From Eledone cirrhosa (Eukaryota): 64,000 nt of DNA. Below are positions 19,839 through 46,451 of the stretch, piece by piece. The notes under the pieces were generated by a model. That model saw only the letters and a program-made list of their open reading frames with translations. It made no database searches and was not told the DNA's origin. Location: contig OZ024741.1 of the NCBI GenBank assembly GCA_964016885.1, positions 24,986,001-25,050,000 of the forward strand. Direction: 5' to 3'. The position numbers and the translations under genes are program-made. Numbering within the stretch: the stretch's first letter is position 1; every line of letters begins with the position of its first letter.

Positions 19839-19854
19839 TTAAACAACATAGATA
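19839..19854 (+). repeat. Target-site duplication of copy 1, left (TTAAACAACATAGATA)
   Basis: The same 16-mer occurs at 21545-21560 and breaks the monomer phase as a duplication would. T21545 also matches the element, so the TSD is 15 or 16 bp. Confidence 0.85.
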
Positions 19855-21545
19855 TATTTCTTTTATTTGCCACTAGGGCATCAAAAGTGGGACAAGTACA
19901 AAGGGGGGAGTTTACACAAAAAGGCGTCCTCAATAAGGAGAAGGCAATAACAAAATATAAAAATAAAATAAGATATAACAAAAAATAAAATTTTTAACAA
20001 AATCCTCAATAGAGAGGAGGCGCCTTGGGGGGTCGCACACACCCCCGAAAAAAGTGTGCAACCCTTCTCCTCAGGAGCACAGAGAAGGGGTGCTCCCTTG
20101 GTCTTTCATCTTCCTCACCTATAGTCTGATGTAGAGTGAAGGCCCATTCACACGGGCCATTCTCGCCACTTTCACCCATCTTTCATAGAAACGGCTGGGG
20201 TGCAGCACCTCTCTCTCCATCCTGATCCTTCTTCCGAAATGATATCGGAAGAAACGGACCAGTTGTTGGCCAGAGAGAAAGGTGCCCGACCTCAGTCCTT
20301 TCAGACGCGTCCACCATACAACCTCTTTCGCCATGGCTATTACGCACAGAAACACCGCCTCTGCTTCATCTTTGAAGGGGGGAGGCGGCTTGATCATTAC
20401 AATAGACTCGGTGGTCAACCGGATCGGTCCCACCCTTGACAGCAGTTGTTCGACATAGCCCCACAGATCGGCTACGCCCGAGCAGTGTACTAATGCGTGT
20501 TCAACGGTTTCCTCGTCGCACACGCATCTGGGACAGATCTTTTTGGCGGGGTCCCTACCCGGGCGCCCGTGTCTGTAGAGCCTTTCTCGAACGGGTAAAG
20601 CCCCTCGGTAGCACTGCCAGGCCAGGGACTTCTGGAAGTTGTCCATAGGTCCCGGGCTGAATGTCCTACCGAACAGGCTGGCCAGTTCGTCCTCCTCCAT
20701 GTCTAGGGCTTCTCCGAGGGCGTCGTCGCACCTGCTGCGTACCAGCCCTCTATAGAATGTTGCGGTGGAGTCTCCACTGATAACCGGATCCGCCTGCCAG
20801 AGGGCGGTGAGCGCCTGGGCACACTCAGTGTGCCAGGCGCCCAGTTTTCTCGGTCTTTGCTTGACCCAGGATTGCAGCTCGGTGAGTGAGACGAGTCTGG
20901 GAAAGGTTCGTCTCACAAACGAGGCCCACACCGGTTGTCCGGTGAGGAATACGTAGAGGTGCCGTAGCCTTAATGCGTGTTTACGCATCATTAGCCACGG
21001 CATCCCCAGCCCTCCTTTCGAAGGGTGTTGACAGCAGATGGATCTCCTCACCATAGGAGCCCGCCTCTTCCAAAGGAATTGGAAGAGCGCGCGCTCCATC
21101 TTGGTGAGGGTTTCCCTTGGGCAGGGCACTACGGTCAGGCGGTAGTAGATGACGGACGCTATGTAGGTGTTCGCCACCTCCGCCCGACCTTTCAGGGATA
21201 GTTTGCAACTGGCCCACTTCTGGGTCAGTGCAAACACCCTGTTCGTAACCTCCGCCCAGTTTTTCTCCACCTGGAGGTCCGGTCCGAACCAGACCCCGAG
21301 CAACTTCACCGGGCCCTCCGTCCAGCGTCCGACGACGCTATCGGAGGGCATCGGTCTGCCCCTCCACGTGCCGAGTTGCAAACCGATCGACTTGTCCCGG
21401 TTCAGCTTAGCCCCTGTGAACTTTTCGTACTCCTCCAGTAAGGTGCCGACCGCCTCGATTTCGCAGGCCGTCGACACCATTACTGTCACGTCATCGGCGT
21501 AGGCCGACACCGCTTTCCGCAATCCCGGTTCCAAAGGGATGCCCT
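19855..21545 (-). mobile_element. 5'-truncated Tx1-like (L1 clade) non-LTR retrotransposon, copy 1
   Basis: Matches 40715-42405 at offset 20860, with 5 substitutions seen by eye. Contains the 3' UTR and the ORF2 C-terminal part, is truncated inside the RT just before YADD, and is flanked by a TSD. Confidence 0.96.
20119..21545 (-). pseudogene. Truncated ORF2 (partial RT with YADD, plus C-terminal CCHC zinc-binding domain)
   Basis: The 478-aa ORF matches the C-terminus of the full ORF2. Its MLFK start is supplied by satellite sequence, and the endonuclease and N-terminal RT are missing. Confidence 0.92.
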
Positions 21546-21560
21546 TAAACAACATAGATA
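21545..21560 (+). repeat. Target-site duplication of copy 1, right (TTAAACAACATAGATA)
   Basis: Duplicate of 19839-19854, followed by GTGTCTTTTATT, the normal continuation of the monomer. Confidence 0.85.
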
Positions 21561-24500
21561 GTGTCTTTTATTAGAAATATCGTAATGAAAGGGTTAAACA
21601 ACATAGACAGTGTCTTTTATTAGCAATATGGTAATGAAAGGGTTAAACAACATAGATAGTGTCTTTCATTAGAAATATGGTAATGAAAGGGTTAAATTAC
21701 ATAGGCAGTGTCTTCTATTAGAAATATCATAATGAAAGCGTTAAACAACATAGACAGTGTCTTTTATTAGAAATATGGTAATGAAAGTGTTAAACAACAT
21801 AGACAGTGTCTTTTATTAGAAATATGGTAATGAAAGTGTTAAACAACATAGACAGTGTCTTTTATTAGAAATGTGGTAATGAAAGTGTTAAACAACATAG
21901 ACAGTATCTTTTATTAGAAATGTGGTAATGAAAGTGTTAAACAACATAGACAGTATCTTTTATTAGAAATGTGGTAATGAAAGGGATGAAAAACATAGAC
22001 AGTGTCTTTTATTAGAAATATGGTAATGAAAGTGTTAAACAACATAGACAGTGTCTTTTATTAGAAATATGGTAATGAAAGGGTTAAACAACATAGATAG
22101 TGTCTTTCATTAGAAATATGGTAATGAAAGGGTTAAATTACATAGGCAGTGTCTTCTATTAGAAATATGATAATGAAAGGGTTAAACAACATAGACAGTG
22201 TCTTTTATTAGAAATATGGTAATGAAAGTGTTAAACAACATAGACAGTGTCTTTTATTAGAAATATGGTAATGAAAGTGTTAAACAACATAGACAGTGTC
22301 TTTTATTAGAAATGTGGTAACGAAAGTGTTAAACAACATAGACAGTATCTTTTATTAGAAATGTGGTAATGAAAGGGTTAAACAACATAGACAGTGTCTT
22401 TTATTAGAAATATGGTAATGAAAGGGTTAAACAACATAGACAGTGTCTTTTATTAGAAATATGGTAATGAAAGGGTTAAACAACATAGACAATGTCTTTT
22501 ATTAGAAATATGGTAATGAAAGGGTTAAACAACATAGACAGTGTCTTTTATTAGAAATATGGTAATGCAAGAGTTAAACAACATAGACAGTGTCTTTTAT
22601 TAGAAATATGGTAATGAAAGGGTTAAACAACATAGATAGTGTCTTTCATTGGAAATATGGTAATGAAAGGGTTAAATTACATAGGCAGTGTCTTCTATTA
22701 GAAATATGATAATGAAAGGGTTAAACAACATAGACAGTGTCTTTTATTAGAAATATGGTAATGAAAGTGTTAAACAACATAGACAGTGTCTTTTATTAGA
22801 AATATGGTAATGAAAGTGTTAAACAACATAGACAGTGTCTTTTATTAGAAATGTGGTAATGAAAGTGTTAAACAACATAGACAGTATCTTTTATTAGAAA
22901 TGTGGTAATGAAAGGGTTAAACAACATAGACAGTGTCTTTTATTAGAAATATGGTAATGAAAGGGTTTAACAACATAGACAGTGTCTTTTATTAGAAATA
23001 TGGTAATGAAAGGGTTAAACAACATAGACAGTGTCTTTTATTAGAAATATGGTAATGAAAGGGTTAAACAACATGGACAGTGTCTTTTATTAGAAATATG
23101 GTAATGAAAGGGTTAAACAACATAGACAGTGTCTTTTATTAGAAATATGATAATGAAACGGTTAAACAACATAGAGAGTGTCTTTTATTAGAAATATCGT
23201 AATGAAAGGGTTAAACAACATAGACATTGTTTTTTATTAGAAATATGGTAATGAAAGGTTTAAACAACATAGACAGTGTCTTTTTTTAGAAATATGGTAA
23301 TGAAAGGGTTAAACAACATAGACAGTGTCTTCTATTAGAAATATGGTAATGAAAGGGTTAAACAACATAGACAGTGTCTTTTATTAGAAATATGATAATG
23401 AAAGGTTTAAACAACATAGAGAGTGTCTTTTATTAGATATAGGGTAATGAATGTGTTAAACAACATAGACAGTGTCTTTCATTAGAAATATGGTAATGAA
23501 AGGGTTAAATTACATAGGCAGTGTCTTCTATTAGAAATATGATAATGAAAGGGTTAAACAACATAGACAGTGTCTTTTATTAGAAATATGGTAATGAAAG
23601 TGTTAAACAACATAGACAGTGTCTTATATTAGAAATGTGGTAATGAAAGTGTTAAACAACATAGACAGTATCTTTTATTAGAAATGTGGTAATGAAAGGG
23701 TTAAACAACATAGACAGTGTCTTTTATTAGGAATATGGTAATGAAAGGGTTAAACAACATAGACAGTGTCTTTTATTAGAAATATGGTAATGAAAGGGTT
23801 AAACAACATAGACAATGTCTTTTATTAGAAATATGGTAATGAAAGGGTTAAACAACATAGACAGTGTCTTTTATTAGAAATATGGTAATGAAACGGTTAA
23901 ACAACATAGACAGTGTCTTTTATTGGAAATATGATAATGAAAGGGTTAAACAACATAGACAGTGTCTTTTATTAGAAATATGGTAATGAAAGGGTTAAAC
24001 AACATGGACAGTGTCTTTTATTAGAAATATGGTAATGAAAGGGTTAAACAACATAGACAGTGTCTTTCATTAGAAATATGGTAATGAAAGGGTTAAATTA
24101 CATAGGCAGTGTCTTCTATTAGAAATATGATAATGAAAGGGTTAAACAACATAGACAGTGTCTTTTATTAGAAATATGGTAATGAAAGTGTTAAACAACA
24201 TAGACAGTGTCTTTTATTAGAAATATGGTAATGAAAGTGTTAAACAACATAGACAGTGTCTTTTATTAGAAATGTGGTAATGAAAGTGTTAAACAACATA
24301 GACAGTATCTTTTATTAGAAATATGGTAATGAAAGTGTTAAACAACATAGACAGTGTCTTATATTAGAAATGTGGTAATGAAAGTGTTAAACAACATAGA
24401 CAGTATCTTTTATTAGAAATGTGGTAATGAAAGGGTTAAACAACATAGACAGTGTCTTTTATTAGGAATATGGTAATGAAAGGGTTAAACAACATAGACA

Positions 24501-27500
24501 GTGTCTTTTATTAGAAATATGGTAATGAAAGGGTTAAACAACATAGACAATGTCTTTTATTAGAAATATGGTAATGAAAGGGTTAAACAACATAGACAGT
24601 GTCTTTTATTAGAAATATGGTAATGAAACGGTTAAACAACATAGACAGTGTCTTTTATTGGAAATATGATAATGAAAGGGTTAAACAACATAGACAGTGT
24701 CTTTTATTAGAAATATGGTAATGAAAGGGTTAAACAACATGGACAGTGTCTTTTATTAGAAATATGGTAATGAAAGGGTTAAACAACATAGACAGTGTCT
24801 TTTATTAGAAATATGATAATGAAACGGTTAAACAACATAGAGAGTGTCTTTTATTAGAAATATGGTAATGAAAGGGTTAAACAACATAGACAGTGTTTTT
24901 TATTAGAAATATGGTAATGAAAGGTTTAAACAACATAGACAGTGTCTTTTATTAGAAATATGGTAATGAAAGCGTTAAACAACATAGACAGTGTCTTTTA
25001 TTAGAAATATGGTAATGAAAGGGTTACACAACATAGACAGTGTCTTTTATTAGAAATGTGGTAATGAAAGTGTTAAACAACATAGACAGTATCTTTTATT
25101 AGAAATATGGTAATGAAAGTGTTAAACAACATAGACAGTGTCTTTTATTAGAAATGTGGTAATGAAAGTGTTAAACAACATAGACAGTATCTTTTATTAG
25201 AAATGTGGTAATGAAAGGGTTAAACAACATAGACAGTGTCTTTTATTAGAAATATGGTAATGAAAGGGTTAAACAACATAGACAGTGTCTTTTATTAGAA
25301 ATATGGTAATGAAAGGGTTAAACAACATAGACAATGTCTTTTATTAGAAATATGGTAATGAAAGGGTTAAACAACATAGACAGTGTCTTTTATTAGAAAT
25401 ATGGTAATGAAAGGGTTAAACAACATAGACAGTGTCTTTTATTGGAAATATGATAATGAAAGGGTTAAACAACATAGACAGTGTCTTTTATTAGAAATAT
25501 GGTAATGAAAGGGTTAAACAACATGGACAGTGTCTTTTATTAGAAATATGGTAATGAAAGGGTTAAACAACATAGACAGTGTCTTTTATTAGAAATATGA
25601 TAATGAAACGGTTAAACAACATAGACAGTGTCTTTTATTAGAAATATGGTAATGAAAGGGTTAAACAACATAGACAGTGTTTTTTATTAGAAATATGGTA
25701 ATGAAAGGTTTAAACAACATAGACAGTGTCTTTTTTTAGAAATATGGTAATGAAAGGATTAAACAACATAGACAGTGTCTTTTATTAGAAATATGGTAAT
25801 GAAAGGGTTTAACAACATAAACAGTATCTTTTATTAGAAATATGGTAATGAAAGTGTTAAACAACATAGACAGTGTCTTTTATTAGAAATGTGGTAATGA
25901 AAGTGTTAAACAACATAGACAGTATCTTTTATTAGAAATGTGGTAATGAAAGGGTTAAACAACATAGACAGTGTCTTTTATTAGAAATATGGTAATGAAA
26001 GGGTTAAACAACATAGACAGTGTCTTTTATTAGAAATATGGTAATGAAAGGGTTAAACAACATAGACAATGTCTTTTATTAGAAATATGGTAATGAAAGG
26101 GTTAAACAACATAGACAGTGTCTTTTATTAGAAATATGGTAATGAAAGGGTTAAACAACATAGACAGTGTCTTTTATTGGAAATATGATAATGAAAGGGT
26201 TAAACAACATAGACAGTGTCTTTTATTAGAAATATGGTAATGAAAGGGTTAAACAACATGGACAGTGTCTTTTATTAGAAATATGGTAATGAAAGGGTTA
26301 AACAACATAGACAGTGTCTTTTATTAGAAATATGATAATGAAACGGTTAAACAACATAGACAGTGTCTTTTATTAGAAATATGGTAATGAAAGGGTTAAA
26401 CAACATAGACAGTGTTTTTTATTAGAAATATGGTAATGAAAGGTTTAAACAACATAGACAGTGTCTTTTTTTAGAAATATGGTAATGAAAGGATTAAACA
26501 ACATAGACAGTGTCTTTTATTAGAAATATGGTAATGAAAGGGTTTAACAACATAAACAGTATCTTTTATTAGAAATGTGGTAATGAAAGGGTTAAACAAC
26601 ATAGACAGTGTCTTTTATTAGAAATATGATAATGAAACGGTTAAACAACATAGAGAGTGTCTTTTATTAGAAATATGGTAATGAAAGGGTTAAACAACAT
26701 AGACAGTGTTTTTTATTAGAAATATGGTAATGAAAGGTTTAAACAACATAGACAGTGTCTTTTATTAGAAATATGGTAAAGAAAGCGTTAAACAACATAG
26801 ACAGTGTCTTTTATTAGAAATATGGTAATGAAAGGGTTACACAACATAGACAGTGTCTTTTATTAGAAATATGGTAATGAAAGGGTTAAACAACATAGAC
26901 AGTGTCTTTTATTAGAAATATGGTAATGAAAGGGTTAAACAACATAGACAGTGTCTTTTATTAGAAATATGATAATGAAAGGGTTAAACAACATAGACAG
27001 TGTCTTTTATTAGAAATATGGTAATGAAAGGGTTAAACAACATAGACAGTGTCTTTTATTAGAAATAGGGTAATGAAAGGGTTAAACAACATAGACAGTG
27101 TCTTTTATTAGAAATATGATAATGAAAGGGTTAAACAACATAGACAGTGTCTTTTATTAGAAATATGATAATGAAAGGGTTAAACAACATAGACAGTGTC
27201 TTTTATTAGAAATATGGTAATGAAAGGGTTAAACAACATAGACAGTGTCTTTTATTAGAAATATGGTAATGAAAGGGTTAAACAACATAGATAGTGTCTT
27301 TTATTAGAAATATAGTAATGAAAGGGTTAAACAACATAGACAGTGTCTTTTATTAGCAATATGGTAATGAAAGGGTTAAACAACATAGACAGTGTCTTTT
27401 ATTAGAAATGTGGTAATGAAAGGGTTAAACAACATAGACAGTGTCTTTTATTAGAAATGTGGTAATGAAAGGGTTAAACAACATGGACAGTGTCTTTTAT

Positions 27501-30500
27501 TAGAAATATGGTAATGAAAGGGTTAAACAACATAGACAGTGTCTTTTATTAGAAATATGATAATGAAACGGTTAAACAACATAGAGAGTGTCTTTTATTA
27601 GAAATATGGTAATGAAAGGGTTAAACAACATAGACAGTGTTTTTTATTAGAAATATGGTAATGAAAGGTTTAAACAACATAGACAGTGTCTTTTTTTAGA
27701 AATATGGTAATGAAAGGGTTTAACAACATAAACAGTATCTTTTATTAGAAATGTGGTAATGAAAGGGTTAAACAACATAGACAGTGTCTTTTATTAGAAA
27801 TATGATAATGAAACGGTTAAACAACATAGAGAGTGTCTTTTATTAGAAATATGGTAATGAAAGGGTTAAACAACATAGACAGTGTTTTTTATTAGAAATA
27901 TGGTAATGAAAGGTTTAAACAACATAGACAGTGTCTTTTATTAGAAATATGGTAATGAAAGCGTTAAACAACATAGACAGTGTCTTTTATTAGAAATATG
28001 GTAATGAAAGGGTTACACAACATAGACAGTGTCTTTTATTAGAAATGTGGTAATGAAAGTGTTAAACAACATAGACAGTATCTTTTATTAGAAATATGGT
28101 AATGAAAGTGTTAAACAACATAGACAGTGTCTTTTATTAGAAATATGGTAATGAAAGGGTTAAACAACATAGACAGTGTCTTTTATTGGAAATATGATAA
28201 TGAAAGGGTTAAACAACATAGACAGTGTCTTTTATTAGAAATATGGTAATGAAAGGGTTAAACAACATGGACAGTGTCTTTTATTAGAAATATGGTAATG
28301 AAAGGGTTAAACAACATAGACAGTGTCTTTTATTAGAAATATGATAATGAAACGGTTAAACAACATAGAGAGTGTCTTTTATTAGAAATATGGTAATGAA
28401 AGGGTTAAACAACATAGACAGTGTTTTTTATTAGAAATATGGTAATGAAAGGTTTAAACAACATAGACAGTGTCTTTTTTTAGAAATATGGTAATGAAAG
28501 GATTAAACAACATAGACAGTGTCTTTTATTAGAAATATGGTAATGAAAGGGTTTAACAACATAAACAGTATCTTTTATTAGAAATGTGGTAATGAAAGGG
28601 TTAAACAACATAGACAGTGTCTTTTATTAGAAATATGATAATGAAACGGTTAAACAACATAGAGAGTGTCTTTTATTAGAAATATGGTAATGAAAGGGTT
28701 AAACAACATAGACAGTGTTTTTTATTAGAAATATGGTAATGAAAGGTTTAAACAACATAGACAGTGTCTTTTATTAGAAATATGGTAAAGAAAGCGTTAA
28801 ACAACATAGACAGTGTCTTTTATTAGAAATATGGTAATGAAAGGGTTACACAACATAGACAGTGTCTTTTATTAGAAATATGGTAATGAAAGGGTTAAAC
28901 AACATAGACAGTGTCTTTTATTAGAAATATGGTAATGAAAGGGTTAAACAACATAGACAGTGTCTTTTATTAGAAATATGATAATGAAAGGGTTAAACAA
29001 CATAGACAGTGTCTTTTATTAGAAATATGGTAATGAAAGGGTTAAACAACATAGACAGTGTCTTTTATTAGAAATAGGGTAATGAAAGGGTTAAACAACA
29101 TAGACAGTGTCTTTTATTAGAAATATGATAATGAAAGGGTTAAACAACATAGACAGTGTCTTTTATTAGAAATATGATAATGAAAGGGTTAAACAACATA
29201 GACAGTGTCTTTTATTAGAAATATGGTAATGAAAGGGTTAAACAACATAGATAGTGTCTTTTATTAGAAATATAGTAATGAAAGGGTTAAACAACATAGA
29301 CAGTGTCTTTTATTAGCAATATGGTAATGAAAGGGTTAAACAACATAGACAGTGTCTTTTATTAGAAATGTGGTAATGAAAGGGTTAAACAACATAGACA
29401 GTGTCTTTTATTAGAAATGTGGTAATGAAAGGGTTAAACAACATGGACAGTGTCTTTTATTAGAAATATGGTAATGAAAGGGTTAAACAACATAGACAGT
29501 GTCTTTTATTAGAAATATGATAATGAAACGGTTAAACAACATAGAGAGTGTCTTTTATTAGAAATATGGTAATGAAAGGGTTAAACAACATAGACAGTGT
29601 TTTTTATTAGAAATATGGTAATGAAAGGTTTAAACAACATAGACAGTGTCTTTTTTTAGAAATATGGTAATGAAAGGATTAAACAACATAGACAGTGTCT
29701 TTTATTAGAAATATGGTAATGAAAGGGTTTAACAACATAAACAGTATCTTTTATTAGAAATGTGGTAATGAAAGGGTTAAACAACATAGACAGTGTCTTT
29801 TATTAGAAATATGATAATGAAACGGTTAAACAACATAGAGAGTGTCTTTTATTAGAAATATGGTAATGAAAGGGTTAAACAACATAGACAGTGTTTTTTA
29901 TTAGAAATATGGTAATGAAAGGTTTAAACAACATAGACAGTGTCTTTTATTAGAAATATGGTAATGAAAGCGTTAAACAACATAGACAGTGTCTTTTATT
30001 AGAAATATGGTAATGAAAGGGTTACACAACATAGACAGTGTCTTTTATTAGAAATGTGGTAATGAAAGTGTTAAACAACATAGACAGTATCTTTTATTAG
30101 AAATATGGTAATGAAAGTGTTAAACAACATAGACAGTGTCTTTTATTAGAAATGTGGTAATGAAAGTGTTAAACAACATAGACAGTTTCTTTTATTAGAA
30201 ATGTGGTAATGAAAGGGTTAAACAACATAGACAGTGTCTTTTATTAGAAATATGGTAATGAAAGGGTTAAACAACATAGACAGTGTCTTTTATTAGAAAT
30301 ATGGTAATGAAAGGGTTAAACAACATAGACAATGTCTTTTATTAGAAATATGGTAATGAAAGGGTTAAACAACATAGACAGTGTCTTTTATTAGAAATAT
30401 GGTAATGAAAGGGTTAAACAACATAGACAGTGTCTTTTATTGGAAATATGATAATGAAAGGGTTAAACAACATAGACAGTGTCTTTTATTAGAAATATGG

Positions 30501-33500: not shown

Positions 33501-36500
33501 CAACATAGACAGTGTCTTTTATTAGAAATATGGTAATGAAAGGGTTAAACAACATAGACAGTGTCTTTTATTAGAAATATGGTAATGAAAGGGTTAAACA
33601 ACATAGACAGTGTCTTTTATTAGAAATATGGTAATGAAAGGGTTAAACAACATAGACAGTGTCTTTTATTAGAAATATGATAATGAAAGGGTTTAACAAC
33701 ATAGACAGTGTCTTTTATTAGAAATATGGTAATTAAAGGGTTAAACAACATAGACAGTGTCTTTTATTAGAAATAGGGTAATGAAAGGGTTAAACAACAT
33801 AGACAGTGTCTTTTATTAGAAATATGATAATGAAAGGGTTAAACAACATAGACAGTGTCTTTTATTAGAAATATGATAATGAAAGGGTTAAACAACATAG
33901 ACAGTGTCTTTTATTAGAAATATGGTAATGAAAGGGTTAAACAACATAGACAGTGTCTTTTATTAGAAATATGGTAATGAAAGGGTTAAACAACATAGAT
34001 AGTGTCTTTTATTAGAAATATGGTAATGAAAGGGTTAAACAACATAGACAGTGTCTTTTATTAGAAATAGGGTAATGAAAGGGTTAAACAACATAGACAG
34101 TGTCTTTTATTAGAAATATGATAATGAAAGGGTTAAACAACATAGACAGTGTCTTTTATTAGAAATATGATAATGAAAGGGTTAAACAACATAGACAGTG
34201 TCTTTTATTAGAAATATGGTAATGAAAGGGTTAAACAACATAGACAGTGTCTTTTATCAGAAATATGATAATGAAAGGGTTAAACAACATAGACAGTGTC
34301 TTTTATTAGAAATATGGTAATGAAAGGGTTAAACAACATAGACAGTGTCTTTTATTAGAAATAGGGTAATGAAAGGGTTAAACAACATAGACAGTGTCTT
34401 TTATTAGAAATATCATAATGAAAGGGTTAAACAACATAGACAGTGTCTTTTATTAGAAATATGATAATGAAAGGGTTAAACAACATAGACAGTGTCTTTT
34501 ATTAGAAATATGGTAATGAAAGGGTTAAACAACATAGACAGTGTCTTTTATTAGAAATATGGTAATGAAAGGGTTAAACAACATAGATAGTGTCTTTTAT
34601 TAGAAATATAGTAATGAAAGGGTTAAACAACATAGACAGTGTCTTTTATTAGCAATATGGTAATGAAAGTGTTAAACAACATAGACAGTGTCTTTTATTA
34701 GAAATGTGGTAATGAAAGGGTTAAACAACATAGACAGTGTCTTTTATTAGAAATGTGGTAATGAAAGGGTTAAACAACATAGACAGTGTCTTTTATTAGA
34801 AATATGGTAATGAAAGGGTTAAACAACATAGACAGTGTCTTTTATTAGAAATATGGTAATGAAAGGGTTAAACAACATAGACAGTGTCTTTTATTAGAAA
34901 TATGATAATGAAAGGGTTAAACAACATAGACAGTGTCTTTTATTAGAAATATGGTAATGAAAGGGTTAAACAACATAGACAGTGTCTTTTATTAGAAATA
35001 GGGTAATGAAAGGGTTAAACAACATAGACAGTGTCTTTTATTAGAAATATGATAATGAAAGGGTTAAACAACATAGACAGTGTCTTTTGTTAGAAATATG
35101 ATAATGAAAGGGTTAAACAACATAGACAGTGTCTTTTATTAGAAATATGGTAATGAAAGGGTTAAACAACATAGACAGTGTCTTTTATTAGAAATATGGT
35201 AATGAAAGGGTTAAACAACATAGATAGTGTCTTTTATTAGAAATATGGTAATGAAAGGGTTAAACAACATAGACAGTGTCTTTTATTAGAAATATGGTAA
35301 TGCAAGAGTTAAACAACATAGACAGTTTCTTTTATTAGAAATATGGTAATGAAAGGGTTAAACAACATAGATAGTGTCTTTCATTAGAAATATGGTAATG
35401 AAAGGGTTAAATTACATAGGCAGTGTCTTCTATTAGAAATATGATAATGAAAGGGTTAAACAACATAGACAGTGTCTTTTATTAGAAATATGGTAATGAA
35501 AGTGTTAAACAACATAGACAGTGTCTTTTATTAGAAATATGGTAATGAAAGTGTTAAACAACATAGACAGTGTCTTTTATTAGAAATGTGGTAATGAAAG
35601 TGTTAAACAACTTAGACAGTATCTTTTATTAGAAATGTGGTAATGAAAGGGTTAAACAACATAGACAGTGTCTTTTATTAGAAATATGGTAATGAAAGGG
35701 TTAAACAACATAGACAGTGTCTTTTATTAGAAATATGGTAATGAAAGGGTTAAACAACATAGACAATGTCTTTTATTAGAAATATGGTAATGAAAGGGTT
35801 AAACAACATAGACAGTGTCTTTTATTAGAAATATGGTAATGAAAGGGTTAAACAACATAGACAGTGTCTTTTATTGGAAATATGATAATGAAAGGGTTAA
35901 ACAACATAGACAGTGTCTTTTATTAGAAATATGGTAATGAAAGGGTTAAACAACATGGACAGTGTCTTTTATTAGAAATATGGTAATGAAAGGGTTAAAC
36001 AACATAGACAGTGTCTTTTATTAGAAATATGATAATGAAACGGTTAAACAACATAGAGAGTGTCTTTTATTAGAAATATGGTAATGAAAGGGTTAAACAA
36101 CATAGACAGTGTTTTTTATTAGAAATATGGTAATGAAAGGTTTAAACAACATAGACAGTGTCTTTTTTTAGAAATATGGTAATGAAAGGATTAAACAACA
36201 TAGACAGTGTCTTTTATTAGAAATATGGTAATGAAAGGGTTTAACAACATAAACAGTATCTTTTATTAGAAATGTGGTAATGAAAGGGTTAAACAACATA
36301 GACAGTGTCTTTTATTAGAAATATGATAATGAAACGGTTAAACAACATAGAGAGTGTCTTTTATTAGAAATATGGTAATGAAAGGGTTAAACAACATAGA
36401 CAGTGTTTTTTATTAGAAATATGGTAATGAAAGGTTTAAACAACATAGACAGTGTCTTTTATTAGAAATATGGTAATGAAAGCGTTAAACAACATAGACA

Positions 36501-39500
36501 GTGTCTTTTATTAGAAATATGGTAATGAAAGGGTTACACAACATAGACAGTGTCTTTTATTAGAAATATGGTAATGAAAGGGTTAAACAACATAGACAGT
36601 GTCTTTTATTAGAAATATGGTAATGAAAGGGTTAAACAACATAGACAGTGTCTTTTATTAGAAATATGATAATGAAAGGGTTAAACAACATAGACAGTGT
36701 CTTTTATTAGAAATATGGTAATGAAAGGGTTAAACAACATAGACAGTGTCTTTTATTAGAAATAGGGTAATGAAAGGGTTAAACAACATAGACAGTGTCT
36801 TTTATTAGAAATATGATAATGAAAGGGTTAAACAACATAGACAGTGTCTTTTATTAGAAATATGATAATGAAAGGGTTAAACAACATAGACAGTGTCTTT
36901 TATTAGAAATATGGTAATGAAATGGTTAAACAACATAGACAGTGTCTTTTATTAGAAATATGGTAATGAAAGGGTTAAACAACATAGATAGTGTCTTTTA
37001 TTAGAAATATGGTAATGAAAGGGTTAAACAACATAGACAGTGTCTTTTATTAGCAATATGGTAATGAAAGGGTTAAACAACATAGATAGTGTCTTTCATT
37101 AGAAATATGGTAATGAAAGGGTTAAATTACATAGGCAGTGTCTTCTATTAGAAATATCATAATGAAAGGGTTAAACAACATAGACAGTGTCTTTTATTAG
37201 AAATATGGTAATGAAAGTGTTAAACAACATAGACAGTGTCTTTTATTAGAAATATGGTAATGAAAGTGTTAAACAACATAGACAGTGTCTTTTATTAGAA
37301 ATGTGGTAATGAAAGTGTTAAACAACATAGACAGTATCTTTTATTAGAAATGTGGTAATGAAAGTGTTAAACAACATAGACAGTATCTTTTATTAGAAAT
37401 GTGGTAATGAAAGGGATGAAAAACATAGACAGTGTCTTTTATTAGAAATATGGTAATGAAAGTGTTAAACAACATAGACAGTGTCTTTTATTAGAAATAT
37501 GGTAATGAAAGGGTTAAACAACATAGATAGTGTCTTTCATTAGAAATATGGTAATGAAAGGGTTAAATTACATAGGCAGTGTCTTCTATTAGAAATATGA
37601 TAATGAAAGGGTTAAACAACATAGACAGTGTCTTTTATTAGAAATATGGTAATGAAAGTGTTAAACAACATAGACAGTGTCTTTTATTAGAAATATGGTA
37701 ATGAAAGTGTTAAACAACATAGACAGTGTCTTTTATTAGAAATGTGGTAATGAAAGTGTTAAACAACATAGACAGTATCTTTTATTAGAAATGTGGTAAT
37801 GAAAGGGTTAAACAACATAGACAGTGTCTTTTATTAGAAATGTGGTAATGAAAGGGTTAAACAACATAGACAGTGTCTTTTATTAGAAATATGGTAATGA
37901 AAGGGTTAAACAACATAGATAGTGTCTTTTATTAGAAATATGGTAATGAAAGGGTTAAACAACATAGACAGTGTCTTTTATTAGAAATATGGTAATGAAA
38001 GGGTTAAACAACATAGACAGTGTCTTTTATTAGAAATATGGTAATGAAAGGGTTAAACAACATAGACAGTATCTTTTATTAGAAATATGGTAATGAAAGG
38101 GTTAAACAACATAGACAGTGTCTTTTATTAGAAATATGGTAATGAAAGGGTTAAACAACATAGACAGTGTCTTTTATTAGAAATATGGTAATGCAAGAGT
38201 TAAACAACATAAACAGTGTCTTTTATTAGAAATATGGTAATGAAAGGGTTAAACAACATAGATAGTGTCTTTCATTAGAAATATGGTAATGAAAGGGTTA
38301 AATTACATAGGCAGTGTCTTCTATTAGAAATATGATAATGAAAGGGTTAAACAACATAGACAGTGTCTTTTATTAGAAATATGGTAATGAAAGTGTTAAA
38401 CAACATAGACAGTGTCTTTTATTAGAAATGTGGTAATGAAAGTGTTAAACAACATAGACAGTATCTTTTATTAGAAATGTGGTAATGAAAGGGTTAAACA
38501 ACATAGACAGTGTCTTTTATTAGAAATGTGGTAATGAAAGGGTTAAACAACATAGACAGTGTCTTTTATTAGAAATATGGTAATGAAAGATTTAAACAAC
38601 ATAGACAGTGTGTTTTATTAGAAATATGGTAATGAAAGGGTAAAACAACATGGACAGTGTCTTTTATTAGAAATATGATAATGAAAGGGTTAAAAAACAT
38701 AGACAGTGTCTTGTATTAGAAATATGGTAATGAAAGGGTTAAACAACATAGACAGTGTCTTTTATTAGAAATATGGTAATGAAAGGGTTAAACAACATAG
38801 ACAGTGTCTTTTATTAGAAATATGGGAATGAAAGGGTTAAACAACATAGACAATGTCTTTTATTAGAAATATGGTAATGAAAGGGTTAAACAACATAGAC
38901 AGTGTCTTTTATTAGAAATATGGTAATGAAAGGGTTAAACAACATAGATAGTGTCTTTTATTAGAAATATGGTAATGAAAGGGTTAAACAACATAGACAG
39001 TGTCTTTTATTAGAAATATGGTAATGCAAGAGTTAAACAACATAGACAGTTTCTTTTATTAGAAATATGGTAATGAAAGGGTTAAACAACATAGATAGTG
39101 TCTTTCATTAGAAATATGGTAATGAAAGGGTTAAATTACATAGGCAGTGTCTTCTATTAGAAATATGATAATGAAAGGGTTAAACAACATAGACAGTGTC
39201 TTTTATTAGAAATATGGTAATGAAAGTGTTAAACAACATAGACAGTGTCTTTTATTAGAAATATGGTAATGAAAGTGTTAAACAACATAGACAGTGTCTT
39301 TTATTAGAAATGTGGTAATGAAAGTGTTAAACAACTTAGACAGTATCTTTTATTAGAAATGTGGTAATGAAAGGGTTAAACAACATAGACAGTGTCTTTT
39401 ATTAGAAATATGGTAATGAAAGGGTTAAACAACATAGACAGTGTCTTTTATTAGAAATATGGTAATGAAAGGGTTAAACAACATAGACAATGTCTTTTAT

Positions 39501-40714
39501 TAGAAATATGGTAATGAAAGGGTTAAACAACATAGACAGTGTCTTTTATTAGAAATATGGTAATGAAAGGGTTAAACAACATAGACAGTGTCTTTTATTG
39601 GAAATATGATAATGAAAGGGTTAAACAACATAGACAGTGTCTTTTATTAGAAATATGGTAATGAAAGGGTTAAACAACATGGACAGTGTCTTTTATTAGA
39701 AATATGGTAATGAAAGGGTTAAACAACATAGACAGTGTCTTTTATTAGAAATATGATAATGAAACGGTTAAACAACATAGAGAGTGTCTTTTATTAGAAA
39801 TATGGTAATGAAAGGGTTAAACAACATAGACAGTGTTTTTTATTAGAAATATGGTAATGAAAGGTTTAAACAACATAGACAGTGTCTTTTTTTAGAAATA
39901 TGGTAATGAAAGGATTAAACAACATAGACAGTGTCTTTTATTAGAAATATGGTAATGAAAGGGTTTAACAACATAAACAGTATCTTTTATTAGAAATGTG
40001 GTAATGAAAGGGTTAAACAACATAGACAGTGTCTTTTATTAGAAATATGATAATGAAACGGTTAAACAACATAGAGAGTGTCTTTTATTAGAAATATGGT
40101 AATGAAAGGGTTAAACAACATAGACAGTGTTTTTTATTAGAAATATGGTAATGAAAGGTTTAAACAACATAGACAGTGTCTTTTATTAGAAATATGGTAA
40201 TGAAAGCGTTAAACAACATAGACAGTGTCTTTTATTAGAAATATGGTAATGAAAGGGTTACACAACATAGACAGTGTCTTTTATTAGAAATATGGTAATG
40301 AAAGGGTTAAACAACATAGACAGTGTCTTTTATTAGAAATATGGTAATGAAAGGGTTAAACAACATAGACAGTGTCTTTTATTAGAAATATGATAATGAA
40401 AGGTTTAAACAACATAGACAGTGTCTTTTATTAGAAATATGGTAATGAAAGGGTTAAACAACATAGACAGTGTCTTTTATTAGAAATAGGGTAATGAAAG
40501 GGTTAAACAACATAGACAGTGTCTTTTATTAGAAATATGATAATGAAAGGGTTAAACAACATAGACAGTGTCTTTTATTAGAAATATGATAATGAAAGGG
40601 TTAAACAACATAGACAGTGTCTTTTATTAGAAATATGGTAATGAAAGGGTTAAACAACATAGACAGTGTCTTTTATTAGAAATATGGTAATGAAAGGGTT
40701 AAACAACATAGATA
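21545..40714. repeat. 49-bp tandem satellite array, segment 2
   Basis: Same monomer and orientation. Includes a block duplicated at offset 3724 (76 monomers; markers 35321/39045 and 35611/39335). Confidence 0.99.
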
Positions 40715-40721
40715 TATTTCT

Positions 40722-40727
40722 TTTATT
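40722..40727 (-). promoter_or_regulatory. AATAAA polyadenylation-like signal at the element 3' terminus (also 19862-19867)
   Basis: The minus strand reads GGCAAATAAAAGAAATA directly before the target sequence. Confidence 0.55.
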
Positions 40728-40978
40728 TGCCACTAGGGCATCAAAAGTGGGACAAGTACAAAGGGGGGAGTTTACACAAAAAGGCGTCCTCAATAAGGAG
40801 GAGGCAATAACAAAATATAAAAATAAAATAAGATATAACAAAAAATAAAATTTTTAACAAAATCCTCAATAGAGAGGAGGCGCCTTGGGGGGTCGCACAC
40901 ACCCCCGAAAAAAGTGTGCAACCCTTCTCCTCAGGAGCACAGAGAAGGGGTGCTCCCTTGGTCTTTCATCTTCCTCAC

Positions 40979-43900
40979 CTATAGTCTGATGTAGAGTGAA
41001 GGCCCATTCATACGGGCCATTCTCGCCACTTTCACCCATCTTTCATAGAAACGGCTGGGGTGCAGCACCTCTCTCTCCATCCTGATCCTTCTTCCGAAAT
41101 GATATCGGAAGAAACGGACCAGTTGTTGGCCAGAGAGAAAGGTGCCCGACCTCAGTCCTTTCAGACGCGTCCACCATACAACCTCTTTCGCCATGGCTAT
41201 TACGCACAGAAACACCGCCTCTGCTTCATCTTTGAAGGGGGGAGGCGGCTTGATCATTACAATAGACTCGGTGGTCAACCGGATCGGTCCCACCCTTGAC
41301 AGCAGTTGTTCGACATAGCCCCACAGATCGGCTACGCCCGAGCAGTGTACTAATGCGTGTGCAACGGTTTCCTCGTCGCACACGCATCTGGGACAGATCT
41401 TTTTGGCGGGGTCCCTACCCGGGCGCCCGTGTCTGTAGAGCCTTTCTCGAACGGGTAAAGCCCCTCGGTAGCACTGCCAGGCCAGGGACTTCTGGAAGTT
41501 GTCCATAGGTCCCGGGCTGAATGTCCTACCGAACAGGCTGGCCAGTTCGTCCTCCTCCATGTCTAGGGCTTCTCCGAGGGCGTCGTCGCACCTGCTGCGT
41601 ACCAGCCCTCTATAGAATGTTGCGGTGGAGTCTCCACTGATAACCGGATCCGCCTGCCAGAGGGCGGTGAGCGCCTGGGCACACTCAGTGTGCCAGGCGC
41701 CCAGTTTTCTCGGTCTTTGCTTGACCCAGGATTGCAGCTCGGTGAGTGAGACGAGTCTGGGAAAGGTTCGTCTCACAAACGAGGCCCACACCGGTTGTCC
41801 GGTGAGGAATACGTAGAGGTGCCGTAGCCTTAATGCGTGTTTACGCATCATTAGCCACGGCATCCCCAGCCCTCCTTTCGAAGGGTGTTGACAGCAGATG
41901 GATCTCCTCACCATAGGAGCCCGCCTCTTCCAAAGGAATTGGAAGAGCGCGCGCTCCATCTTGGTGAGGGTTTCCCTTGGGCAGGGCACTACGGTCAGGC
42001 GGTAGTAGATGACGGACGCTATGTAGGTGTTCGCCACCTCCGCCCGGCCTTTCAGGGATAGTTTGCAACTGGCCCACTTCTGGGTCAGTGCAAACACCCT
42101 GTTCGTAACCTCCGCCCAGTTTTTCTCCACCTGGAGGTCCGGTCCGAACCAGACCCCGAGCAACTTCACCGGGCCCTCCGTCCAGCGTCCGACGACGCTA
42201 TCGGAGGGCATCGGTCTGCCCCTCCACGTGCCGAGTTGCAAACCGATCGACTTGTCCCGGTTCAGCTTAGCCCCTGTGAACTTTTCGTACTCCTCCAGTA
42301 AGGTGCCGACCGCCTCGATTTCGGAGGCCGTCGACACCATTACTGTCACGTCATCGGCGTAGGCCGACACCGCTTTCCGCAATCCCGGTTCCAAAGGGAT
42401 GCCCTGCAACAACTCCAACTTCCGCAGTAGTGGCTCGAGAGTCAACACATACAGAAGGGAGGAGAGAGGGCACCCTTGTCGGATGGACCGCGCGATTTTG
42501 AACGGCTCCGAGAGGTAGCCGTTCACCTTGACCCTAGAGCAGATGCGGCTGCTGTGCATAGCAGTGATCCAGCCCCTGAAAACGGGTCCGAAGCCTGCCG
42601 CCGCTAGCACCGCATCGAGGTAACCATGGTCGACCCTATCGAACGCCTTAGATTGATCCAAGTTGATCAGAGCCCCACCAAAGCCGGGTTCGTTCCCAAC
42701 CCTCTCTATGATGTATCGCATGAGGTGGAGGTTGTCATGGATGGACCTGGACGGGATAGCGCATGTCTGCGCATCTCCCACCAGGTTGCCCACGACAAGC
42801 GCCAACCTCTTTGCTAGCACCTTGGCCAAAATCTGTAACTCTGTATTTAGCAGAGTTATGGGCCTGAAGTTACTTATTTCGTCCCCCTTGTTCTCGTCCT
42901 TCCTCACTAGCGTGACTACGCCCTTGGTCACAGTACAGGGAATTCTCCCGTTCTGTTGCCAGTTGCAGTAGACCGCCTCGAGGAGATCGGGGAACAAGTC
43001 CGGCATAGCTAGATATAATTCGTAAGGAAGACCATCGAGACCCGGGGATTTGCGTTTGCCGCATTGGCTCAGCACGTCCTCTATCTCAGCGGCCGAAATC
43101 GGCTCCTCGCAGGACTTCGCCTCCCTGTCCGAGAGGCGCGGCAGGCCGTCGAGGTATGGACCGAAGTCCACGTTCCCAACCGGCTCCCCGCCCCTCCCGA
43201 ACAGTCGGGCAAAGTGCCTTTGAAAGGCCTCACACATCTGCTTAGGCTCAAGAATCGCCCGTCCATCCAGGTCTCGCAAAGACCGGATGGTGGATTTAGT
43301 TCCACTGTTGGCCTCTGTCACGCGGGCCCAGCTAACAGCTTTGGTCCCCTCGTTCCCTAGAGCACGTATTTTACTTCGGACAACGCAGCCTTCGTGCTTC
43401 GCGTCGAAAAACTGGCTCAAAGCCGTTCTCGATGCTAGCACTCTGGCCACGTCGCCGCTTCTAATTGCCTCTTCTACTCTATCTATTAGCTCCCTTTCCT
43501 TCCTATTCCTATCCGCAGCTAGAACCTTACTAAATTCTATCGAGACTACTCTAATCTCTCTCTTTAGAGATACCCACCACCTGCTGTTGACGATCGCTCC
43601 AGTCAACCGTTCCTTAACTAACGTACTAATCCGATTCCTGTAGGCTCTACTTGCCGGCAAGGACAAGTTGAGCTTCCAGTAACCGGGGCCCTGTCTATGA
43701 GTTCTGTCAAGGTTGACCATGCAGGTCACTAATTTGTGGTCTGAATAGCCAACCATGCGCATTATTGGACAACTTAAAAAGTCCTTATCCTTAATTCTAA
43801 CTAAGAACCTATCTAGGTACGACCTAGATGATCCGCTACGATTTGCCCAAGTCCAGGTTGGCGCAGTCGGAAAATCTAGTCGATATCTATCGGCCAGGTC

Positions 43901-44416
43901 AAATCGACCGATTAACCCTTTGAGGCTATTACACCCCTCTCTATCGGGGCAGGCCCCTACGTAGTCCCAGCGTGCATCTAGGATACCATTCCAGTCCCCC
44001 ACTAATAGCAAGGAGCGGGACGTCCCTAGAAAAGTCTCCAGACGATGGAAGAAGTCCGGCCGCATTGACCCGAAAGGGCCGTAGGCGGCTACCAACCTAA
44101 ACGCTCCGCCTTTACCACTGCCAAGGTCCAGAACCACTAGTCGACCCTCCGGGTCCAAATGTACCATCTGTGTTGCGAGACCCAGATGTTTTTGCAGCAG
44201 AACGACAACTCCACCCCCACCTCCGGGCTGACAGAGAGATGCGTGCATCTCAAAGTCATCAAAGGTGGGGGCCAGCTGTCGCACGTTGCTGATCCGGGCC
44301 TCGCAAATAACCATCACATCTATACGTTGTGACCTGAGGTCATTTAGAAGCATTGCTTGCTTCCAAGTTGAGCCCAGGCCACGCGCATTTAAACAGCCTA
44401 CTCTTAGCATAGCCAT
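40979..44416 (-). CDS. ORF2: AP-like endonuclease / reverse transcriptase / C-terminal zinc-binding protein (~1145 aa from the first ATG)
   Basis: APE motifs GCLNARGL, ICE, AYGP, GDWN, LDRFLV and SDH. RT motifs KSPGLDGLPYELY, NFRPITLLN, DQSKAFDRVDH, RQGCPLS and YADD. C-terminal CPRC..EETVAHALVHC. The ORF-track start at 44440 is GTG; the first ATGs are at 44416 and 44410. Confidence 0.96.
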   Translation of the reverse strand: MAMLRVGCLNARGLGSTWKQAMLLNDLRSQRIDVMVICEARISNVRQLAPTFDDFEMHASLCQPGGGGGVVVLLQKHLGLATQMVHLDPEGRLVVLDLGSGKGGAFRLVAAYGPFGSMRPDFFHRLETFLGTSRSLLLVGDWNGILDARWDYVGACPDREGCNSLKGLIGRFDLADRYRLDFPTAPTWTWANRSGSSRSYLDRFLVRIKDKDFLSCPIMRMVGYSDHKLVTCMVNLDRTHRQGPGYWKLNLSLPASRAYRNRISTLVKERLTGAIVNSRWWVSLKREIRVVSIEFSKVLAADRNRKERELIDRVEEAIRSGDVARVLASRTALSQFFDAKHEGCVVRSKIRALGNEGTKAVSWARVTEANSGTKSTIRSLRDLDGRAILEPKQMCEAFQRHFARLFGRGGEPVGNVDFGPYLDGLPRLSDREAKSCEEPISAAEIEDVLSQCGKRKSPGLDGLPYELYLAMPDLFPDLLEAVYCNWQQNGRIPCTVTKGVVTLVRKDENKGDEISNFRPITLLNTELQILAKVLAKRLALVVGNLVGDAQTCAIPSRSIHDNLHLMRYIIERVGNEPGFGGALINLDQSKAFDRVDHGYLDAVLAAAGFGPVFRGWITAMHSSRICSRVKVNGYLSEPFKIARSIRQGCPLSSLLYVLTLEPLLRKLELLQGIPLEPGLRKAVSAYADDVTVMVSTASEIEAVGTLLEEYEKFTGAKLNRDKSIGLQLGTWRGRPMPSDSVVGRWTEGPVKLLGVWFGPDLQVEKNWAEVTNRVFALTQKWASCKLSLKGRAEVANTYIASVIYYRLTVVPCPRETLTKMERALFQFLWKRRAPMVRRSICCQHPSKGGLGMPWLMMRKHALRLRHLYVFLTGQPVWASFVRRTFPRLVSLTELQSWVKQRPRKLGAWHTECAQALTALWQADPVISGDSTATFYRGLVRSRCDDALGEALDMEEDELASLFGRTFSPGPMDNFQKSLAWQCYRGALPVRERLYRHGRPGRDPAKKICPRCVCDEETVAHALVHCSGVADLWGYVEQLLSRVGPIRLTTESIVMIKPPPPFKDEAEAVFLCVIAMAKEVVWWTRLKGLRSGTFLSGQQLVRFFRYHFGRRIRMEREVLHPSRFYERWVKVARMARMNGPSLYIRL

Positions 44417-44440
44417 GTTGGTGGTGAAGAGAAAAGGCAC

Positions 44441-46219
44441 TTACCTCTCTGCGTCCCGGGTATCGGGCTGCACAATTTCCATTAGGGTGGGGGATGGGTT
44501 GTTGGGTGGGGTGGTGGTTTGTGGAAGTGTGGGGGCATCAGTGTGTTGTGTGGTTGGGGAGCTTGGAGTTGTGAGGGTGTTTGGGGAGGGGGTGGGATAG
44601 TTTTTTAGGAGGACGCGGTTAATGGGCCCGACGCAGGGGGGACCCACGTCCTCTTTAAAATTGTTTTTTAAAGTTTTATAGGTGTCCTGTGGGGCCTTAA
44701 TCATTTTGAGGTGGGGGAAATCCCCTGCCTGGGTGAAGTTAGGCCCTTGTGTTTTTATTAGATTGTTGTTGTACACAATGTTTAACAGTTTTTTGTTTCT
44801 TGTATTTATGTATGTGTATGCATGTTTTTGTTTTTGTGTGGTGTTTTTTGTTTGCTGTTGTGAGCTCTTTTGTGTTGGTGTCAGTGTTATGTTTTGGGGA
44901 GGGGTTTTTTTCATTTGTGTGTCTGAGGTGTGTTTTCTTTTTTTTCTTTTGATTGTGTGGAAGTGCTCCTCCTCGTCTGACGACGAACTAGGGTCATCTT
45001 CCGCGTTGGAGGGGAGGGGTATATTTTCGGGTTGTGTTTGCGGTACGGGTGTTTTGGAAATTGTTTTTGTTTTTTGAGTGGAGGGGATGGGTTGGACATT
45101 GTTTTGTTTTGGTTTGAGCTGTGGTGGTTGTTTTTGTAGTGGTAGTTGTGGTGATTGTGTTGGTTGTGCAGTTGTTGGTGGTGTAGGCAGGATTGGGGTT
45201 TTCTTATTAAGTTGGGGACAGACAGCCCTCAGGTGACCTCTGGTTCCGCAGAGGTAACACGAGGGCCGTCTACCCTCAACGGTAATGTTGATGAAGGTTA
45301 GATCATCCAGTATGACGCGTTCAGGGATCTGGGCGATCCTTTCGGGCCTCATTTGAACTACAAGTTCGAGGCTCGTTCCACTGAACGCGTCACCCGATGC
45401 CTTTCCCATGGACACCAGCATGTCATCCTCCAGGTCGAGAAAACCTGTCAAAACCCACCATATGTCCATAATCGGCAGGATGGTGTGGATTTTTATTTTT
45501 TGCGTTCTTCTACCCATGTACGTAGGGTAGAAGGTGTATGCGGTGGATGTGATTGGTTTGATGGACAGTTTCACTGCTGTGTCCCTGTCCTTCATGAGAA
45601 TGGATAGACTCCCGTAGAGTCTATCCTTCTGAATGAAGGTGATGTCCTTCATGACGTCTTTTAAAACCAGCTCTATCTCGCTCTGTGATGGTTGAGCTGG
45701 TTTTTTACTTTTGTTCGAGATTGTCCTAAACATGACCGTGTTTAGGAGTCTCTGGCTTTTTAGTTCCGGGGGGGAATGGATTGTGAATGAACCATTTTCC
45801 CCGTACACTATATATTTTTTCGCATCCGCCAGTAGCTCCTTCGCTTTTGTTATATCTACTGGCAGATAGTCGAGGGTTTTCCTTGTCGTCTCGGCGAAGG
45901 AGAAATTTTGTTTGTTTGTGTTGTTGTTGTCGTTGGTGGTGTTGTTGTTATCATTGTTGTTGTTGTCACCGTTATTGGTCTTGTTGTTGTTATTGTTATT
46001 GGTGTTGTTTTCGTCCGTCGCATTGTTGTTGTTGCTGTTGCCGCTGGTTCTTTGAGTTGTTGCCATGGCAACGTCAAGTTGTCGGTTAACAGGTGGAGAG
46101 AATTCTTCCTCTGGCTGACCTTTCTTCTTGACCTCTGCTACTGTGACAGTGGCAGGGGGAAGCTGTAAGTTCATCTTCCCCTTTCCTCCTTCGAATTTTG
46201 GTGAAGAAGCTTCGGCCAT
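44441..46219 (-). CDS. ORF1: gag-like nucleic-acid-binding protein with CCHC zinc knuckle (592 aa)
   Basis: ATG start, directly upstream of ORF2. CYLCGTRGHLRAVC (CX2CX4HX4C) at 45218-45259, an Asn/Thr-rich N-terminal tract, a P/Q/T-rich linker, and an acidic patch followed by KRKKRK. Confidence 0.92.
   Translation of the reverse strand: MAEASSPKFEGGKGKMNLQLPPATVTVAEVKKKGQPEEEFSPPVNRQLDVAMATTQRTSGNSNNNNATDENNTNNNNNNKTNNGDNNNNDNNNTTNDNNNTNKQNFSFAETTRKTLDYLPVDITKAKELLADAKKYIVYGENGSFTIHSPPELKSQRLLNTVMFRTISNKSKKPAQPSQSEIELVLKDVMKDITFIQKDRLYGSLSILMKDRDTAVKLSIKPITSTAYTFYPTYMGRRTQKIKIHTILPIMDIWWVLTGFLDLEDDMLVSMGKASGDAFSGTSLELVVQMRPERIAQIPERVILDDLTFINITVEGRRPSCYLCGTRGHLRAVCPQLNKKTPILPTPPTTAQPTQSPQLPLQKQPPQLKPKQNNVQPIPSTQKTKTISKTPVPQTQPENIPLPSNAEDDPSSSSDEEEHFHTIKRKKRKHTSDTQMKKTPPQNITLTPTQKSSQQQTKNTTQKQKHAYTYINTRNKKLLNIVYNNNLIKTQGPNFTQAGDFPHLKMIKAPQDTYKTLKNNFKEDVGPPCVGPINRVLLKNYPTPSPNTLTTPSSPTTQHTDAPTLPQTTTPPNNPSPTLMEIVQPDTRDAER
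45910..46045 (-). repeat. Degenerate (AAC)n coding microsatellite in ORF1
   Basis: TTG/GTT repeats on the plus strand encode the NNNN/TTN tracts. Confidence 0.8.
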
Positions 46220-46435
46220 TTAAAAAAATATTGACTTTTCAACAAGAAAAAACTTTTTTTTTGTTTAACTATTTCGCCTAAAGGCGTAGAATATTTTGAG
46301 AGACTGACCAGATCAAAGTTTGACCTGGCAGTCCCTCTACAAAATGGTACAAAAATTAAAGTTATCAGACAAGAATTTCTATAGAAATTTAAACAGAACT
46401 TACTCAGCAGGTTATACGCGTGTGTCCATCCCAGA
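46220..46435 (-). promoter_or_regulatory. Retrotransposon 5' UTR (presumed internal promoter)
   Basis: Non-satellite, non-coding stretch upstream of the ORF1 ATG, containing inverted repeats. The promoter role is inferred from L1-clade biology. Confidence 0.55.
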
Positions 46436-46451
46436 GATAGATAGATAGATA
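46436..46451 (+). repeat. (GATA)4 microsatellite at the 5' junction of the full-length element
   Basis: CCAGA-GATAGATAGATAGATA-TACAGTATC; I saw no comparable tract in the satellite. Confidence 0.92.

Follow-up and report, generated by a model that had tools for sequence, protein, structure and literature searches.

The window analysed here is a stretch of 64,000 nucleotides from Eledone cirrhosa (assembly GCA_964016885.1, contig OZ024741.1, positions 24,986,001 to 25,050,000 of the forward strand), and positions are counted from its first letter unless another locus is named. It consists of a single 49-bp satellite that is broken twice by GC-rich DNA. Both interruptions are copies, on the minus strand, of the same long interspersed nuclear element (LINE). 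In a reading that we hold to be very probable, this is a young and abundant LINE of the L1 group (likely of the Tx1 clade) that is found for the most part in (GATA)n and (TA)n microsatellites, and all four of its satellite copies sit in a rare monomer variant, ACATAGATA, which likely acts as a mimic of the microsatellite.

The satellite fills the window (1..64000, plus strand) and continues on both sides as an array of ~375 kb and ~7,290 monomers, with its ends at about -160,200 and 214,900 (window numbering). The consensus monomer carries ACATAGACA at the insertion site, and 4.8% of the monomers carry ACATAGATA (the GATA variant). Among the 6,789 anchored monomers, the class CATAGACAG accounts for 80% and the class CATAGATA for 4.8%. 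The variant differs from the consensus by a single C-to-T change, which places a T at -2 (GATA vs GACA). The array is rich in exact duplications of several kb. In the window, a 4,421-bp duplication with irregular units of 30, 79 and 128 bp is found at 8232-9302 and 12653-13723.

Copy 1 (19855..21545, minus strand) is a 5'-truncated LINE that comprises the 3' untranslated region (UTR), the C-terminal zinc finger and the part of the reverse transcriptase (RT) domain in which the truncation falls. It is enclosed by a target site duplication (TSD). The left TSD (19839..19854, plus strand) ends in the target motif ACATAGATA, and the right TSD (21545..21560, plus strand) runs on as a GATA-variant monomer, the original target. 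For the 5' junction of this copy, no bridging contig or read was present among the matches listed for the public runs X1, X3, X5 and X24.

Copy 2 (40715-46436) has both open reading frames (ORFs) intact. Read along the minus strand, it comprises a 5' UTR (46220..46436), ORF1 (44441..46219; 592 aa, containing an Asn-rich tract and, at residues 320-336, a single CCHC knuckle), ORF2 (40979..44416; 1145 aa, with an apurinic/apyrimidinic endonuclease (APE), an RT and a C-terminal zf-RVT domain) and a 3' UTR (40715..40978). In the latter, an AATAAA signal (40727-40722) lies 7 nt before the end, and there is no poly(A). The motif ACATAGATA directly adjoins the 3' junction (40706..40714, plus strand). 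No TSD is found for this copy. Its 5' end is followed by (ATAG)3ATA (46437..46451, plus strand), a sequence that is not in the monomer and was likely carried over with the RNA from a donor in a GATA microsatellite.

The comparison of the two copies agrees with what the first-pass annotation had described. Their 3' junctions are identical, and the string that spans them has exactly two occurrences, 20,860 bp apart, at 19836 and 40696; the reversed control pattern gave 0 matches, so chance is excluded. Both copies have the same orientation, they differ by five internal substitutions (19941/40801, 20151/41011, 20501/41361, 21187/42047 and 21464/42324), and the monomers upstream are different (19815 C vs 40675 A). 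The TSD of 15-16 bp around the truncated copy is likewise confirmed, as the two 16-mers are identical and one of their bases is common to the element.

The encoded proteins place the element among the relatives of L1. ORF2 matches the Pfam families Exo_endo_phos (4.9e-8), RVT_1 (5.2e-26) and zf-RVT (3.8e-5, below the curated cut-off). The APE motifs N9, E39, D141/N143, D202 and D226/H227 are present, as is the RT motif YADD at 686. The best relative of solved structure is human L1 ORF2p (164 bits, against 56-72 bits for R2), and a profile search gives 5e-207 for L1 ORF2p vs 6e-67 for R2, in a comparison that is coarse because few non-LTR clades are represented in the PDB. The endonuclease alone returns weak matches from the PDB with phmmer. 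The closest named protein is that of Argonauta (67% identity), which makes an octopod host likely. In a quick tree of 60 selectively chosen rows, none of them a named Tx1 sequence, the RT pairs with the Argonauta protein (99). The pair belongs to a clade of 47 rows (99) that also contains RTs of fish and turtles and is separate from plant L1. A turtle protein of this kind (P0207) is 33% identical to ORF2 over 694 aa, and it scores higher with the Tx1L-loop chimera LTx (61.5 bits) than with L1-EN (56.5) or LR1 (51.7). The endonuclease loop of our element, WANRSGSSR, is shorter than that of the turtle relative and dissimilar to it. No Tx1 names or taxa were returned by a cluster look-up and an Atlas search. 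Among the data sets listed as containing the element none is of RNA, which speaks neither for nor against its expression.

In ORF1, the CCHC knuckle is visible by motif and gives a weak Pfam match (E 0.051), and Pfam yields no Transposase_22 match. For residues 105-345, no homologs were found among 947 candidates, none reaching E 1e-4. Type I ORF1 proteins are described as an RRM plus CCHC (PMC5203782); of these, the weakly matching CCHC is seen here and no RRM is evident. On its domains, its affinity to L1 and its truncations and TSDs, which all fit, the element is assigned to the L1 group (L1/Tx1) of non-LTR retrotransposons, and it likely belongs to the Tx1 clade. From the initial description as an L1/Tx1-like and sequence-specific element, the L1 group and the sequence specificity are thus borne out, and Tx1 membership stands as likely. 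In Octopus vulgaris, 13 recently active L1-Tx1 families are reported (PMC13282606).

A recombinant subfamily was also encountered (L123, L137 and L143; also L118, L119, L120 and L151). Its RT and C-terminus are 98-99% identical to copy 2, its endonuclease ~88% and its ORF1 ~69%, with the switch near window positions 43,700-43,900. Its target looks the same as that of copy 2.

In total, the 375-kb array holds four copies of the family. Copies 3 and 4 lie outside the window, at 102,922 (full length, with a broken ORF2 of 738 aa) and at 118,765 (truncated, with a 12-bp TSD). As their TSDs show, the satellite continues after copies 1 and 4 as a GATA-variant monomer. Under the standard model of target-primed reverse transcription the resumed TSD copy is the original DNA, and both copies therefore entered the variant. 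For copies 2 and 3, the target can be read from left-flank matches of 490 bp elsewhere in the array, which represent empty sites. The exact matches continue as the variant in 7/7 cases for copy 2 and in 2/2 for copy 3; at one mismatch, this is 12/12 and 5/6. No such matches exist in the array for copies 1 and 4. The probability that all four insertions fall into the 4.8% class by chance is ~5e-6, and the 5,441 monomers of the consensus class contain no insertion at all. The four insertions share one position and one strand of the monomer, as had been claimed for the first two. This follows from the distribution of the family motif, which occurs 323 times at the insertion position, 114 times at three other plus-strand positions and 3 times on the minus strand of the array.

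Genome-wide, the exact 37-nt 3' end of the family is found 1,893 times. When junctions are collected with a 27-nt core, 1,558 follow TAGATA and 193 follow TATATA; as the two cores differ, 1,558 + 193 against 1,893 is an approximate ratio. Only 4 junctions are in the satellite, all of them inside the 375-kb array, and a first search, in which 30 loci were drawn from 48 matches, met the satellite only at the window's own locus. These counts refute the satellite as the main target: it is a side target and not the home of the family.

The nature of the usual target is seen in the 3' flanks of 50 copies (40 whole and 10 complete short copies, the first 50 of 100 listed places, all on contig C1; 9 of the 50 are full length). 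All 50 flanks end in A-n-n-n-A-[G/T]-A-T-A, with A-9, A-5, [G/T]-4, A-3, T-2 and A-1 invariant. At least three GATA units are present in 23 flanks, two units in 10 and at least five TA units in 6; the other 11 are AT-rich repeats or short motifs. A microsatellite (at least two GATA or at least five TA units) therefore adjoins 39/50 copies, where one sequence type in >20% of flanks is the criterion for a target. A (TC)n or (TTC)n tract, the target of Kibi and Koshi, adjoins the 3' junction in 0/50. At the 5' end, GATAGATA comes next in 28 of the 30 top-scoring copies. Raw reads that cross the element end likewise pass into a (GATA)n consensus (826 reads of run X24, reduced-representation data from which no proportion can be taken). 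For a sister family (~83% identical), 5,946 exact ends were counted; 25 of 30 of its flanks show the motif, and the array contains 0 of its copies.

Several related GATA-flanked families, one of them the family with 5,946 ends, occupy the same microsatellites in head-to-tail stacks (L178-L207; L014, L020, L024, L029 and L106-L108). Many of the targets that are not microsatellites (L097, L130, L048, L088 and L153) are minisatellites or degenerate tandem repeats, hinting that a tandem context favours insertion. An AG-ended subfamily, often with a divergent endonuclease, appeared to be linked to (TA)n in the 50-copy sample (7/15 vs 3/35, p 0.0045). The link was not replicated: when the first 100 junctions listed for each motif were counted by hand, this type made up 30 of those after TATATA and 20 of those after TAGATA (p 0.14), in lists that include the discovery copies.

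At the seven sites where it can be resolved (copies 1 and 4, L097, L130, L144, L151 and L153), the TSD measures 11-20 bp and spans the entire 3' flank, leaving neither a poly(A) nor extra GATA units. The bases past the insertion site vary, which places the specificity on the primer side. To the two-ORF anatomy, the primer-side motif, these TSDs and the exclusive use of the variant, all observed directly, a mechanism can be fitted that is modelled on L1, R1Bm and SART1. In it, the strand that reads GATA would be nicked by the APE domain among the final bases of the motif, at a position that is uncertain by several bases and is probably the TpA step, which the consensus monomer (GACA) lacks. The RNA would run a few bases past AATAAA into the (UAUC)n flank of its own donor, and these read-through bases could pair with the freed 3' end and prime reverse transcription. 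A second nick 11-20 bp away would then yield the TSD. Full-length RNAs would start in the upstream microsatellite and may carry a few GATA units into the 5' junction, as copy 2 would illustrate. For L1, the specificity is reported to lie upstream of the nick (PMC1950540), and for SART1Bm and R1Bm, pairing between RNA and target is proposed to set the start of reverse transcription (PMC7265360). Recognition by the endonuclease and pairing by the RNA both predict failure at GACA, so that the present data cannot separate the two.

Some observations weigh against a pure microsatellite mimic. A first point is that 11 of the 50 sampled copies are outside a clean GATA or TA run. Another is the frequency with which the array is used. 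The 10-mer AACATAGATA, which was picked after the fact and for which the count is four, occurs 24,770 times in the genome. It is followed by 4 insertions at ~323 sites in the array and by 0 at ~24,400 sites outside, or 1.2e-2 per site against a 95% upper bound of 1.2e-4 elsewhere. With the two copies that drew attention to the window set aside, the figure for the excess is still 1.7e-4. The variant monomer is thus taken at least ~100 times more often per site than the same 10-mer elsewhere, which shows that the motif alone cannot account for the array and that context beyond it matters. For comparison, the genome has 30,527 starts of GATA runs when one phase is counted, an undercount of all runs, and the young copies that follow long GATA runs number roughly 870 (23/50 of 1,893). 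To an order of magnitude, a variant monomer thus receives about as many insertions as a whole GATA microsatellite. One might speculate that the near-cognate ATAGAC sites, which recur every 49 bp, or the chromatin of the array concentrate the particle. This hotspot speaks for the first-pass annotation, which had proposed sequence specificity for the satellite; as the target of the family, however, the satellite does not hold.

It is possible, if rather less than an even bet, that the LINE has a cryptic second target, in which one C-to-T change turns the monomer on and the array context raises its use at least 100-fold. The relevant context may be the near-cognate sites every 49 bp, the chromatin or satellite-bearing read-through RNA. 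If true, the array would offer a snapshot of how Tx1 families switch between repeat targets.

A stronger form of this idea, in which the array is a true second target by feedback, is improbable. Here the satellite read-through RNA of resident copies would pair with a longer stretch of a nicked monomer, and the daughters would return to the array. The excess per site over the same 10-mer elsewhere fits such a cycle, as do the intact copy 2 inside the array and the pairing proposed for SART1Bm and R1Bm (PMC7265360). The four array copies are moreover all TA-ended and close to each other, with a mean of 5.7 differences per 1,670 bp vs 10.0 for 8 other TA copies. However, no derived allele is common to all four over their shared length. 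Copy 1 carries the A of position 40801, which is present in 6 of 18 TA copies outside the array and absent from copies 2-4; at several of the sites that distinguish copies 2 and 3, both alleles are also found segregating outside; and some outside copies are among the closest to copies 1 and 2. A single array-resident founder for the four copies therefore finds no support in shared alleles.

The original proposal, an endonuclease specific for the satellite monomer with the satellite as a safe harbour, is very unlikely. It draws on the four insertions at one position and strand of the monomer, on the hotspot, and on satellite-targeting Tx1 families, whose existence is implied in the Fig. 3 legend of PMC4494074. 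Against this, the satellite receives 4 of at least 1,893 young copies (0.2%, far under the 20% criterion of PMC4494074) and 0 of the 5,946 of the sister family. The specificity is also not for the monomer as such, since the consensus (80%) is never used and every insertion is in the 4.8% GATA variant.

Equally hard to sustain is the origin of all satellite copies from one insertion that was spread by duplication, deletion or gene conversion. Such a history would agree with the exact kb-scale duplications that are common in the array and with an identical run of 3,675 bp across the 5' junctions of copies 2 and 3 (62,207 bp apart; L064/L065), neither of which has a TSD. This run comprises 933 bp of the element's 5' end (window 45504-46436) and 2,742 bp of flank. 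Given the shared run and the missing TSDs, one of these two 5' junctions is likely secondary, and the sharing is probably the result of conversion, exchange or an assembly error. In the remaining 4.8 kb, however, copies 2 and 3 have 13 differences, and they occupy different higher-order contexts, each matching GATA-variant empty sites. All four left flanks are different, and that copies 1 and 4 both resume in the variant is expected in ~0.2% of cases under deletion. The four 3' junctions in the array are distinct and in different contexts, in line with the at least two events that had been deduced from the window and against one insertion behind both of its junctions. The variants that segregate among the array copies indicate different donors.

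That (GATA)n is the element's own 3' tail, with near-random insertion, is very unlikely: most 3' ends adjoin GATA and four copies (L118, L119, L132 and L157) have it on the 3' side only, but copies 1 and 4 and five copies on C1 have no tail beyond the TSD, compound repeats run on at both sides (L008), 193 junctions follow TATATA, and truncated copies also have GATA or TA on the 5' side. Six copies (L118, L119, L127, L132, L140 and L157) have rearranged or unmatched 5' flanks and are uninformative in this respect.

Around the array, some further elements were noted. The sole other insertion in it, of 2.5 kb and unrelated to the LINE, is near the array start (about 2,200-4,800 of locus L160); it starts near CTAG and ends in a TA run, and may be a Helitron-type element. 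About 16 kb ahead of the array start, a related endonuclease is found that is 75% identical (L158:3858-4574). In the whole genome (G000), 30 GATA-variant monomers are on the reverse strand and none of those in the 375-kb array is reversed, so that a second, smaller array must lie elsewhere. In the genome-wide junction search, no junction of the LINE family was found in it.

A LINE of GATA and TA microsatellites that occasionally enters a satellite variant, as we read it, is of interest for several reasons. Each target-specific APE family tends to own its repeat, and the GATA/TA target adds one entry. Elements with an APE are known from TC, TTC, TTCC, TTTC, AC and ACAY microsatellites (PMC4494074, PMC3812793), and the mechanism of this targeting is described as poorly understood (PMC3812793). 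Literature searches did not find a GATA-targeting Tx1 family, which Repbase or the supplements and Fig. 3 of PMC4494074 could list. The array is a natural experiment, in which the element could choose among ~7,000 near-identical monomers and inserted four times, always into a monomer with T at -2. One base of the rule for recognition or priming is thereby fixed without bench work. With an intact, very young element and a short motif, the question of endonuclease versus RNA pairing becomes directly testable.

Among other non-LTR elements, SART1Bm, R1Bm, Waldo, Mino and Dong are likewise targeted to repeats (PMC7265360, PMC3812793), but they belong to other clades and use TTAGG, 28S rDNA, ACAY, AC and TAA. 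Human LINE-1, the best solved relative of ORF2, has TSDs of a similar size range and a specificity upstream of the nick (PMC1950540). Unlike LINE-1, our element has no poly(A) at the junction, uses GATA/TA instead of a T-tract and encodes a CCHC-type ORF1. Tx1L of Xenopus and the crocodilian Tx1-Mar are also target-specific elements of the L1 group, and a Tx1L-like endonuclease loop is present in vertebrate relatives of ORF2. These two elements target DNA transposons (PMC4494074), unlike our family, and the loop WANRSGSSR does not resemble the Tx1L-like loop of the turtle relative. The occasional entry into a satellite is paralleled by YURE in U2_sat, which also depends on resemblance to the true target; YURE, however, has a restriction-like endonuclease and a U2-derived target (PMC4640811), whereas here a single base of the monomer creates the mimic. 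The nearest parallels are Kibi in (TC)n, Koshi in (TTC)n and the crocodilian Tx1 group in (TTCC)n/(TTTC)n, which are L1-group LINEs with an APE in microsatellites as well (PMC4494074, PMC3812793). Compared by description rather than by sequence, they differ in that the (GATA)n/(TA)n target of our family is no pyrimidine tract and its host is an octopod, and they are alike in that they often form tandem stacks, as is the case here.

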